Shown here piece after piece: positions 6,001-9,000 of a stretch of 48,513 bases of DNA. Source of the DNA: a virus (lineage: Duplodnaviria > Heunggongvirae > Uroviricota > Caudoviricetes); the IMG/VR virus record IMGVR_UViG_2547132252_000025; one strand, written 5' to 3'. Position numbers: made by a program. Each line of letters starts with the position of its first letter. Position 1 is the stretch's first letter.

Positions 6001-9000
6001 CAACAGGCCACCCTGCAATGGCATATTGCATGGTGTGCTCCTTATTTATACATAACGAAAAACGCCTCGAGTGAAGCGTTATTGGTATGCGGTAACGCCG
6101 CGCTCAGGCGGCTTTGATAGTCATATCATCTGAATCAAATATTCCTGATGTATCGATATCGGTAATTCTTATTCCTTCGCTACCATCCATTGGAGGCCAT
6201 CCTTCCTGACCATTTCCATCATTCCAGTCGAACTCACACACAACACCATATGCATTTAAGTCGCTTGAAATTGCTATAAGCAGAGCATGTTGCGCCAGCA
6301 TGATTAATACAGCATTTAATAAAGAGCCGTGTTTATTGAGTCGGTATTCAGAGTCTGACCAGAAATTATTAATCTGGTGAAGTTTTTCCTCTGTCATTAC
6401 GTCATGGTCGATTTCAATTTCTATTGATGCTTTCCAGTCGTAATCAATGATGTATTTTTTGATGTTTGACATCTGTTCATATCCTCACAGATAAAAAATC
6501 GCCCTCACATTGGAGGGCAAAGAAGATTTCCAATAATCAGAACAAGTCGGCTCCTGTTTAGTTACGAGCGACATTGCTCCGTGTATTCACTCGTTGGAAT
6601 GAATACACAGTGCTGTGTTTATTCTGTTGTTTATGCCAAAAATAAAGGCCACCATCAGGCAGCCTTGTTGTAAATGTTGCAGGTATCAAGTAAGTAATTA
6701 GATGGAGCGCCATAAATTATGAATTCATCGTTTGTCGGGTCCATCTCCATCTCTTGTCCTATTGCCATTCTTGCGTCAGTGTCGTCAGCGGCGAAGCATA
6801 AAACAGCCCACGCACCCATTGTTTTAAAAAGAACTGCAATTGGCTGTGGTTTTACTGAATTTGCGTTAGCGCGAAAATCACAAATCGCACTTTCATGAAA
6901 TTCCATATATCACCTCAAATAAGTGGTTTGCTGCCTAATTTCATTTTCTGGCGACCAACACAAGTCATCTTGCTGTCAGTTGTTTGGATTTACGGTAGCC
7001 TGCCGCGTAAAGAGCTACATTTGGAAGACAAGTTGAGCCTTCATATTTTCTGGTCAACGTTGTCAGTGTTATTACTTCTGCTCTCATTGCTGGTTTGCGT
7101 TTGCATTGTAAGACCACTCGTGATGGGGTTGGCCTGTGTAGTTTGTCGGAGCTAATCGCCTCCTGACTTTGCAGGTTTGCGCGACGAGCTCTACGGCGAG
7201 AAGCTGCGGTGCCTTTAAATTCTGTTTTTCTGGACATAGATTCCTCCCGAATAAACTTTGGCGATGCAATCTCGAAGCTCCTCCTGAGACGGTTGCTTCG
7301 GCATTGCATCCCACAGCTTATGTGGTTGGGTGATCTGGCTTTTCAGCCACGTAGTCGAGAGTCGACGTTGTTTAAAGAGCCTGCCAGTCTGTTCCATTTG
7401 GCTTCCAGCGTCCTGCTGATGGTTAAATAGTACGATATGTACTTCACTTGGTCAATACAATTTGTTCTAAAACGGGGCGTTTTTTTACAACGCTTTGTAT
7501 TTAATAGTATTGTTTTTTAGCGTGGGTGTATTGCCTCGGCGATGTAAGGAGAGATCAGAATTGCGTTGTTTAGTGAGTTGTATCTATTTATTTTCCAATA
7601 AATACAATTGGTTATGTGTTTTTTTGGGCGAGAGGAAAAGAAAACCCGGCATGGAGGCCGGGTTGATGATTAGCGGTGTGGCCTTGAGCGATAATGCTCA
7701 CACACATGTTCAAGATTTCCATGCCTTATCCGTTCATAGGCATTCACATGAACTTCTCGATCGAATTGGTCATTCAAATTGTATGTAGACATCTGTGTTT
7801 TCTCATATTGGCGGCAGCCCTACAACCGCTTGAAAAAATGTACCAGACGCGCTAAGGTTACATCGCAAATATTGTGTACCTTAACAAGGGCTCCTTTTGG
7901 AGGCTCTGGTTAAACAGCATCAATGTCGGACTGGGGAGTTGGACATTGTGCTGAATGCTTTTGCATTATTGAGGCCGAACGTAAACCTTCAGAATTGAAG
8001 AGATGCGTTCGGCTTCTTCGTTTGTGATATCGTTAGGAATGCCTTTAATCGTTACTGTAACCCCTGATTCAGGTCGAAGAACTACTGGAAGATCATAGGT
8101 ATGAAGTGCATTAGCCTTGCCTTCGACTTTTGTTGGTTCGCCAGTCAAATCTTTTTCCTCACTGGATTCTTTGTCAATCGGAGTGTATGGGATTTCTTCA
8201 CCAGACTGGAAAGCTACAAACTTTTTGATTGCACTTTCCATGCGGCTTTTATATGCAGTAATGCTGCTGTCGCTAGGCTTCGGCTCAGTTGCGTTGATGT
8301 ATCGCTCGGCAAGCTCATTCACATCAAGCTGAGTAACATCACCCATTTCCTCTTCTTGGACTACCGTTAAGAGGCGAGCGGATGAGTTTTTTAAATTTCG
8401 AGCGGTGGCCTCCTTCATTATGTTCAGCGACATAAGCTCTTCAAGGAAGTCCTTGAATGCCTGCACGCTAACGTTTGACTTTGCCATTTGCTCTCTCTCT
8501 AAGTTATTGACTCAGATCGAGTTTATCCAGGAATTGATTTGCATGCAAGACTCAAGTCTTGAGAATTTCCGTTCAAGATCCACTCTCAATAAAAAAGGCC
8601 GCACCTCTGCGACCTTTCATCTCCTAAATCTCTTTTCTCTTACCTAAAGAAACAGCAGGCTGGGTCAGCCCTAACAACTTCAAGTGCATCGGTCAGAGAA
8701 AGCTCCGTGCTATACAGGTGTTATTTCATATCTTTTTGCATCCAATAAATTTTCCATCTGTCCAGAGAGCGGATGCACTTGATTCTTGTTGATGGCAGGA
8801 CGTTTTTTCACCTGCCTCACCCTGCCATACAGGACGCTGCTCACCGATATCTATCGTCCGGTCATTGATGTTATAGACAATATCCAGATCATTACGGATA
8901 TACTCAGATGGCCTTATGCTTTCAATGAATAGATGAACTTCTTTTTGACCGCTTGATACTCATGGCCATTAAACTCCATCTATCCTCTTTACCCAAACGT

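Follow-up and report, generated by a model that had tools for sequence, protein, structure and literature searches.

A repressor-adjacent open reading frame of Stx phages belongs to a three-part protein-RNA-peptide cassette that may act as a regulated switch

The open reading frame (ORF) next to the cI repressor gene in a 48,513-nt stretch of viral DNA (Caudoviricetes; IMG/VR record IMGVR_UViG_2547132252_000025), the whole of which is called the window here, is one part of a self-contained cassette of three parts: an acidic protein of 173 aa, termed X, a folded RNA, and a tiny peptide gene, termed Y. On the minus strand the elements follow each other in the order terminator T1, putative operator and promoter, X, RNA, Y, and terminator T2. 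The three-part cassette as a whole is not described in any database. It could, judging by indirect evidence, be a toxic or defensive switch under the control of a regulator; for this we infer that X binds DNA or RNA, that the RNA gates translation, and that Y is toxic or has a defensive role.

The layout is conserved. In all 30 distinct enterobacterial/viral cassettes a gap of 149-174 nt separates the X stop codon from the start of the small ORF, and in enteric phages X never occurs alone, the RNA and the small ORF being present in each of the 30 cassettes analysed. The window contains every element by which the cassette is defined: an X protein of the family phrog_2602, a spacer of 149-174 nt with the helices P1, P2, P4 and P5 and the pseudoknot P3, a small ORF, and a terminator. 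An alignment of the flanks of nine cassettes revealed a conserved T1 and operator/promoter upstream of X and, downstream, a conserved stretch followed by the small ORF and T2.

Positions 7400-9000 are 100% identical to VT2-Sakai (Sp5), to a Shiga toxin 1 (Stx1)-converting phage, to Stx2 phage 1717, and to about 40 further Stx phage records. In the identical records the X ORF lies between cI (8989-9690, minus strand) and the OL/pL-N region under the names H0093, VT2-Sap23 or ORF b63, always as 'hypothetical'; it is also Sp5 ORF23/ECs1184. Of 5426 complete E. coli genomes, 234, most of them O157:H7, carry the 1-kb cassette at ≥99% identity. A first-pass annotation of the window had recorded the 173-aa acidic ORF between cI and pL correctly, as its minus-strand location, its isoelectric point (pI) of 4.85 and the identical annotated records demonstrate, but had assigned to the slot this one ORF in an AT-rich island. 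The slot also contains the RNA (7793-7965), the 40-aa gene (7670-7792) and a decayed DUF3024 gene (8646-8979). There is no local AT-rich island: the G+C content of the region, 44.7% as against 51.4% for the whole window, lies within that of the early-left region from 5500 to 10500, which is 37-50% throughout. The RNA and the 40-aa gene, which had been missed, are probably the output of the cassette. The real object is thus larger and more unusual than the earlier finding: a protein, a peptide gene and a structured RNA that falls into no known class form one unit, which we class as a prophage accessory cassette similar to toxin-antitoxin (TA) systems.

The structured spacer RNA

Between X and Y lies an RNA for which three sequence classes (1, 2a and 2b) with one common architecture were found. 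The window spacer, which belongs to class 2a, folds as a single sequence with a minimum free energy of -54.1 kcal/mol (z -3.9), and the fold recovers P1, P2, P2c, P4 and P5. The comparative support, for structures derived from the same sequences as those used for the covariation statistics, is as follows. In class 1 (17 sequences) 86% of the cells are paired, versus 34-45% when the partners are slid, with 18 double-changed pairs versus 5-10; in class 2b (15 sequences) 85% are paired versus 35-52%, with 18 double-changed pairs versus 7-14; and in class 2a (7 sequences) 96.6% are paired versus 27-46%, with 7 double-changed pairs versus 0-2. None of 500 shuffles matched the observed values on any of the five measures in classes 1 and 2b; in class 2a none did so on four measures and 17 of 500 did so on one. 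RNAalifold independently recovered P1, P2, P2b and P5 of class 1 with 14 compensatory pairs. The pseudoknot occurs in class 2b in four compensatory versions (TTACC/GGTAA, AAACCC/GGGTTT, AAATCTA/TAGATTT and AACCCA/TGGGTT); P3 is invariant and therefore uninformative in class 2a, where its support comes from homology with the other classes. The junction nucleotides UAGCGG and CAAG/CAAC do not vary. Since a class-1 covariance model failed to detect the window spacer, the structure of the latter was established on its own class of seven sequences.

The G-U pairs favor the sense (minus) strand. An antisense promoter/RNA reading, in which the invariant TCAAG and TAGCG serve as plus-strand -35 and -10 elements, was set aside because both the compensatory changes and the G-U pairs agree with the sense strand, for which the z-score is also better. 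A search of positions 6500-10200 with Rfam 15 returned only GadY, with 20 bits against a gathering threshold of 45 (E 0.98), and in eight other cassette loci no Rfam 15 model matched the spacer. Judged by the comparative evidence, the spacer RNA is real and encoded on the sense strand, and it adds a well-supported structured RNA that has no Rfam family.

The loop of P1 (7928-7941; 13-14 nt; CAACTCCCCAGTCC) is replaced in Salmonella phage Oslo and in one further locus (L053) by its exact reverse complement, AGACTGGGGAGTTG, with the stem unchanged. The flip has the appearance of a local inversion mediated by the hairpin, and it suggests that nothing reads the loop sequence as such.

Boundaries and putative control elements

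Hairpins at 8591-8614 and 7627-7662, noted in the first-pass annotation as terminators, were verified by their folding z-scores and their conservation. T1 folds with -19.2 kcal/mol (z -4.0), and its sequence GGTCGCAGAGRTGCGGCC plus the T-run is kept in 9 of 9 aligned cassettes beside different cI genes. T2 (z -3.6) was also detected by a terminator scan and corresponds to the putative pRM terminator in the annotation of AP000422; its stem, AACCCGGC..GCCGGGTT or the covarying AAACCCGC..GCGGGTTT, followed by a T-run, is found after Y in nearly all 30 cassettes. The number of terminator-like sites in the region, four compared with 2.6 ± 1.6 expected, is not above chance, so that the case for T1 and T2 is made by fold energy and conservation.

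The inverted repeat recorded at 8546-8561 is exact and is conserved in other genera: AAGACT..AGTCTT occurs at the same site in cassettes of Cronobacter, Yersinia, Salmonella and Proteus and is kept where X is ≥73% identical, and in cassettes with a more divergent X other inverted or direct repeats take its place. The operator-like repeats over the -35 element thus change together with the divergence of X. A reading of the repeat as an RNA hairpin was rejected (fold z 0.44), and the palindrome is therefore better regarded as a putative DNA operator. The position of the putative promoter and its -10 element (TAAACT/TAGAAT) are kept across cassettes.

Several loci with a divergent X (L058, L066, L072, L004-L006 and others) carry GATC-rich inverted repeats over the -35 element, such as GGATTCATCGATCG...CGATCGATGAATCC, located approximately 40-100 nt upstream of X. 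These clusters of Dam sites hint at a methylation- or SeqA-sensitive control.

Table 1. Features of the cassette in the window, in the order in which they occur on the minus strand
Feature	Position	Strand	Remarks
T1 intrinsic terminator	8588-8614	minus	closes the cI side, insulates the cassette; stem 8597-8614, U tract 8588-8596
Operator-like palindrome	8546-8561		CAAGACT-TG-AGTCTTG; exact 7-bp arms, 2-bp center; overlaps -35
Putative cassette promoter	8520-8548	minus	-35 TTGCAT 8543-8548, 17-bp spacer, -10 TAAACT 8520-8525
GA-rich Shine-Dalgarno sequence	8490-8499	minus	in X leader; read from sequence
X	7966-8487	minus	173-aa acidic protein; ORF and AlphaFold2 layout
Structured RNA, class 2a	7793-7965	minus	between X and Y; ~173 nt
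RNA helix P1	7915-7953	minus	long hairpin directly after X stop codon
RNA helix P2	7842-7910	minus	long-range, encloses P4
RNA hairpin P2c	7893-7900	minus	small hairpin; P2b or P2c accompanies P2
Pseudoknot P3	7816-7892	minus	P2 internal loop with P5 loop
RNA hairpin P4	7852-7884	minus	enclosed by P2
RNA hairpin P5	7811-7829	minus	just upstream of Y ribosome-binding site
Y	7670-7792	minus	40-aa His/Arg-rich peptide (H0092; phrog_21154); annotated in AP000422
T2 intrinsic terminator	7633-7664	minus	ends cassette just before OL/pL; stem 7643-7664 plus U tract

Protein X and its family

X has a net charge of -8.4 and is a member of phrog_2602, a family of unknown function; it falls into no Pfam, NCBIfam or PADLOC family, and a PDB sequence search yielded nothing usable. 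An exhaustive HMMER scan identified 278 cluster representatives at E ≤1e-3, nearly all of them 160-200 aa long and with the same two-domain layout. AlphaFold2 with a 150-sequence alignment predicts the structure with a mean pLDDT of 90 and supersedes an earlier run with 19 close homologues, in which the C-terminal domain reached a pLDDT of 55-60. In the model, residues 8-95 form four helices that resemble the core-binding (SAM-like) domain of integrases, and residues 100-128 form a disordered acidic linker. Residues 130-168 constitute a beta-beta-alpha domain with the family motif PIPLR....V.I.GLP.DLT..EA. Weak matches to Phage_int_SAM models were obtained for 13 of 150 family members. Foldseek searches of BFVD and the PDB gave nothing below E 0.09, and X contains no HTH_3/HTH_31, M78 or HicB domain. 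A protein of 1358 aa with 17 copies of the C-domain motif (P0122) was dismissed as low-complexity repeats.

Comparison with the core-binding domains of tyrosine recombinases (lambda Int, 2oxo/1z1b; IntI4, 2a3v; XerA; 3nrw) and with MrpR (8a0a) gave identities of 6-16%; MrpR, a recombinase-derived repressor, is among the systems closest to X. X differs from the recombinases in being acidic, in lacking the catalytic domain, and in having the additional C-terminal beta-beta-alpha domain. It has no Phage_integrase Pfam match and no catalytic domain with the residues R-K-H-R-H/W-Y, as the chain ends at residue 173; it possesses the core-binding domain but is therefore not a recombinase. According to the model, X has a fold of the DNA-binding type with neither an enzymatic nor a membrane domain and by itself does not look like an effector. 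Its family, with at least 278 cluster representatives, is characterized by an integrase core-binding fold that stands alone.

In distant, non-enteric homologues the spacer RNA is absent, and X is coupled to a partner gene or stands alone. The partners, which are translationally coupled, are either a conserved two-transmembrane protein of ~197 aa or peptides of 44-48 aa, at least one of which has a hydrophobic helix; distant X genes are chromosomal, beside membrane-protein partners. The arrangement fits that of a regulator plus an effector. With the ~197-aa partner, X forms a second version of the system that does without the RNA. In four loci of Wenzhouxiangella and other metagenomic contigs (L007, L009, L025, L081) the gene for the ~197-aa protein overlaps the stop codon of X; the protein has two N-terminal transmembrane helices and belongs to no Pfam family.

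Published observations on X were made with E. coli lysogens. The study that dealt with ORF23/ECs1184 listed it as 'hypothetical, 173 aa' between N/ECs1181 and CI/ECs1185 and found no domains in it (PMC5155283). It was one of only two Sp5 ORFs for which attempts at an in-frame deletion in a K-12 lysogen failed; the deletion was judged to be apparently lethal, and the authors suggested a role in stable lysogeny (PMC5155283). In a 2025 RNA-interactome study of enterohemorrhagic E. coli (EHEC) Sakai, ECs1184 was recovered by TRAPP (total RNA-associated protein purification) at a false discovery rate (FDR) of 0.065 (PMC7618764). As the protein was recovered from EHEC Sakai cultures, X is made in the lysogen. 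In a literature search, descriptions of the RNA, of Y or of the X family were not found. Neither the prophage small RNA svsR, located at the 3' end of cI (PMC12803456), nor the 'bully phage' Cro effect proved on inspection to be related to the cassette. A match to a housekeeping or structural family, which would have counted against the first-pass annotation, was not found for the protein. The protein, named there as the best candidate for an undescribed function, is not wholly unstudied, having been reported as non-deletable under the name Sp5 ORF23/ECs1184.

Modularity and the replacement of X

The cassette occupies the cI-N slot with different cI types in phages of E. coli, Cronobacter, Yersinia, Serratia, Salmonella (phage Oslo) and Proteus and in a second Stx1 phage, SH2026Stx1. 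It also occurs at other moron sites: at int/gin in Yersinia phage YP3, where no Y is recognizable, and among the tail genes of Pantoea and Erwinia prophages. Given this variety of cI partners and sites, the cassette behaves as an autonomous moron. The earlier view of an insulated cargo gene that is expressed in the lysogen thus agrees with the conserved promoter-like elements of the cassette, its flanking terminators, its modular movement, and the recovery of the protein from EHEC Sakai.

X could also be a factor of lysogeny maintenance in the Stx prophage, as the authors of the deletion study proposed, an integrase-derived DNA binder that represses lytic genes or blocks excision and to which the RNA and Y are incidental. 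Association of the cassette with several cI types, its presence outside immunity regions (tail genes, gin), and the chromosomal location of distant members beside membrane-protein partners speak against this proposal; dependence on the switch or the att sites of one phage is unlikely in view of such varied settings, and we consider the proposal quite improbable.

Subfamilies of X, classes of RNA and types of Y occur in shuffled combinations. X proteins that are 77% identical pair with unrelated types of Y, so that X, as far as the sequences reveal, probably does not act through a specific contact with Y. X itself is replaceable. Two Klebsiella phages lack X and have instead an XRE protein and an ImmA/IrrE Peptidase_M78 protein, followed by a class-2b RNA spacer of ~175 nt and a type-C Y; an E. 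coli phage without X has XRE and ImmA, a spacer of ~158 nt that is not recognizably the same RNA, and a Y resembling type B. A pattern scan of viral contigs for class-2b RNA yielded 39 loci, in which the unit directly upstream of the RNA was X in 18, XRE plus ImmA/IrrE in 10, and a HicB-family protein plus a 146-aa acidic protein in 8, with nothing recognizable in 3. Class 2a, that of the window, was located behind X in 30 of 30 viral loci.

ImmR/ImmA of ICEBs1 and CapH/CapP of CBASS are pairs of an XRE protein and an ImmA/IrrE-type protein that function as repressor and anti-repressor. Such pairs and HicB-type antitoxins hold the position of X upstream of the class-2b RNA and the type-C Y, which is why X is said here to work like a regulator, although X, unlike them, is a lone protein and has the core-binding fold of a recombinase. 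That known DNA-binding regulators and antitoxins take the place of X points to X as the controller and to the RNA plus Y as the controlled output. Loci of Klebsiella and E. coli prophages (L084, L085, L095 and others) contain a regulator pair, a class-2b RNA and a zinc-ribbon micro-ORF, often beside umuDC, dinI or int. The regulator-RNA-peptide modules form a wider family.

That X itself is the effector of superinfection exclusion or abortive infection and does for this phage what RexAB does for lambda is the reading that its location would suggest. The stretch from the repressor to N commonly carries accessory loci, including rexAB, bstA and other exclusion genes (PMC7067206), X is an insulated gene whose protein is made in the lysogen, and the same slot holds the decayed DUF3024 gene that matches PDC-S43. 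However, neither X nor a distant X homologue nor any of the three types of Y had a match in PADLOC-DB 2.0, PDC-S43 being found only for the neighboring pseudogene. The predicted fold of X is of the nucleic-acid-binding type without an enzymatic or membrane domain. The RNA and the small ORF accompany X in 30/30 enterobacterial cassettes, and XRE/ImmA or HicB-type regulators stand in for X in class 2b, which fits a controller better. An effector function of X consequently has a quite low probability.

The cassette resembles the morons lambda rexAB and BTP1 bstA in its location in the cI-N slot, its expression in the lysogen and its mosaic exchange between phages, without similarity in sequence or fold. 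Further accessory genes in this slot are nun of HK022 and stk of 933W. Unlike the cI-N morons, the cassette is not simply co-transcribed with cI but has a putative promoter of its own behind a terminator, and it has three parts, among them a structured RNA. A RexA-like sensor with a RexB-like multi-pass membrane protein was not found, since neither X nor Y matches a PADLOC, Pfam or NCBIfam model and the window cassette encodes no transmembrane protein; genomic position is the only feature shared with RexAB.

The small peptide gene Y

Y of the window matches phrog_21154 with E 5e-8 and has the motif V.V..Y.R.R.G..EHV..H.RS.P. A comparison with the Yersinia copy over 26 codons revealed 13 synonymous and 2 non-synonymous differences. 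Y is, by this evidence from the sequence, a real gene under purifying selection. VT2-Sap22, predicted by GeneMark/RefSeq as a 53-aa ORF on the plus strand (7694-7855) across Y and the RNA, is unlikely to be a gene because its Cronobacter homologue has an in-frame stop and many substitutions are radical.

Three types of Y occur among the cassettes. Type A, that of the window, has 40-44 aa (phrog_21154); type B, 56-61 aa (phrog_33859), is very basic with a pI of 10.4; and type C, 47 aa, contains a zinc-ribbon-like CxxC...CxC motif. Profiles of the three types aligned with hhalign showed no similarity, and homology was rejected. Searches of PDB and Pfam yielded nothing beyond a sub-threshold match of type C to a treble-clef zinc finger.

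Some features would fit a type II TA system in which X would neutralize Y by direct binding and the X-Y complex would autoregulate the operator. The gene order, the terminators and the operator-like repeat fit such a layout, as do the acidity of the upstream protein and its disordered linker, the small size of the downstream gene, the reported non-deletability of X, and the HicB-type antitoxins at the equivalent position of some cassettes. The genes are nevertheless separated by a structured spacer (173 nt in the window, 149-174 nt overall), which is atypical; the pairing of 77%-identical X proteins with unrelated Y types disfavors specific binding, and type-A Y, with a pI of 7.0, is not basic. 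Such a system is very improbable.

Proposed mechanism and its weighing

In the model that we tentatively prefer, X is a regulator or antitoxin-like protein, the RNA a gate, and Y a harmful output. The cassette's own promoter, under the palindromic operator, would transcribe X, then the ~173-nt pseudoknotted RNA, and then Y. X would be a dimerizing nucleic-acid-binding protein composed of a catalytically dead integrase core-binding domain and a beta-beta-alpha domain, and it would restrain the cassette by binding to the operator over the -35 element, to the RNA, or to both. P1 may serve as a hairpin attenuator of read-through, and the pseudoknotted leader, which ends a few nucleotides before the ribosome-binding site of Y, would gate the translation of Y. 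Y would be a small, interchangeable peptide output that harms the cell or an infecting phage once control by X is lost. Harm upon loss of control would render the cassette addictive to the lysogen and potentially make it a switch triggered by infection or stress. This mechanism would explain why X could not be deleted, why the cassette is autonomous, why unrelated Y types are swapped behind nearly identical X proteins, and why XRE/ImmA or HicB-type units occur in place of X.

Structured RNAs just upstream of a small protein gene are known from the type III TA system ToxIN and from the P1 immI locus (c4 RNA-icd-ant). The cassette is similar to both in placing a pseudoknotted RNA before a small protein gene in a phage or defense context. 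It differs from both in that a protein gene, X, precedes the RNA and in having no sequence or Rfam relation to them; unlike ToxIN, it contains a single non-repetitive structure instead of tandem RNA repeats, and Y, a 40-aa peptide without a match to a nuclease family, is too small for a ToxN-type endoribonuclease.

The RNA could instead be the key element, either as a riboswitch-like or protein-binding leader or as a stand-alone non-coding RNA, which would sense a small molecule or a factor of host or phage and turn on the peptide, with X as its RNA-binding partner or chaperone and not a DNA-binding repressor. Its architecture and invariant junctions are kept over the three classes while the flanking genes are swapped, P5 ends just upstream of the ribosome-binding site of Y, and X was borderline-enriched on RNA in vivo. 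A polynucleotide kinase (PNK) assay, though, did not separate X from a GFP control. Moreover, distant X genes lack the spacer RNA and overlap their partner genes, which implies an X function independent of the RNA. We regard an RNA-centered system as unlikely.

Several observations weigh against X as the controller of a harmful, RNA-gated Y. Type-A Y is a neutral (pI 7.0), soluble 40-mer without a known toxin fold, and a toxic or antiviral action of Y is a hypothesis. Since X and Y are co-transcribed in the model, simple repression alone cannot separate their levels. X is acidic throughout, its N-terminal domain having a pI of 4.85, which is unusual for a DNA binder, and in the PNK assay the ECs1184 signal was similar to that of the sfGFP control, 'not a strong RBP' (RNA-binding protein; PMC7618764). 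The promoter is deduced from hexamers that agree with the consensus at 3/6 and 4/6 positions and was missed by a strict consensus scan. The non-deletability of X is the negative result of one study, in which the deletion of the unrelated ECs1180 also failed, so that the cause may be technical. In two class-2b loci (L089 and L100; IMG/VR 2531839178_000008 and 2531839476_000015) X is split by a frameshift into 121 + 63 aa, roughly between its two domains, and Y is intact; either the split X still functions or the loss of intact X is tolerated. To judge from these sequences, loss of intact X is not necessarily lethal, though both halves might be made. Finally, the argument from interchange relies on the sister class 2b, as class 2a was found only with X.

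A broader formulation, somewhat unlikely in its entirety, is that of a previously undescribed system of three components: the regulator would be derived from a recombinase, the pseudoknotted RNA would represent a new class and might sense a ligand or protein, and the effector would be a micro-peptide that can be interchanged. The system would make the Stx2 prophage addictive to its host or would fire on infection or stress. In it, the RNA-peptide unit would be a portable output module for X, XRE/ImmA and HicB-like regulators.

Neighboring genes

Between the cI stop codon and T1 lies the decayed DUF3024 gene (113 aa; 8646-8979, minus strand), which is 81-85% identical to SH2026Stx1_00021 and carries a frameshift and an in-frame stop. 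The intact DUF3024 protein matches the PADLOC defense candidate PDC-S43 with E 7e-42; the cI-N slot therefore formerly carried a second candidate defense gene. Directly downstream of N, an 83-aa ORF (6655-6906, minus strand) corresponds to Sp5 ORF21/ECs1180, for which no Pfam family was found. Besides ECs1184, it is the only Sp5 gene reported as non-deletable (PMC5155283), which is puzzling for a gene of the pL operon, given that the prophage is repressed.

Implications

In E. coli O157:H7 Sakai the cassette forms part of the immunity region of the Stx2 phage. Control by X of a harmful peptide that is gated by the RNA, if it exists, would explain why ORF23 could not be deleted and would amount to a prophage-stabilizing (addiction) or defense function in a major pathogen. 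The RNA-peptide unit common to X, XRE/ImmA and HicB-type regulators provides a testable handle on how small prophage peptides are controlled.

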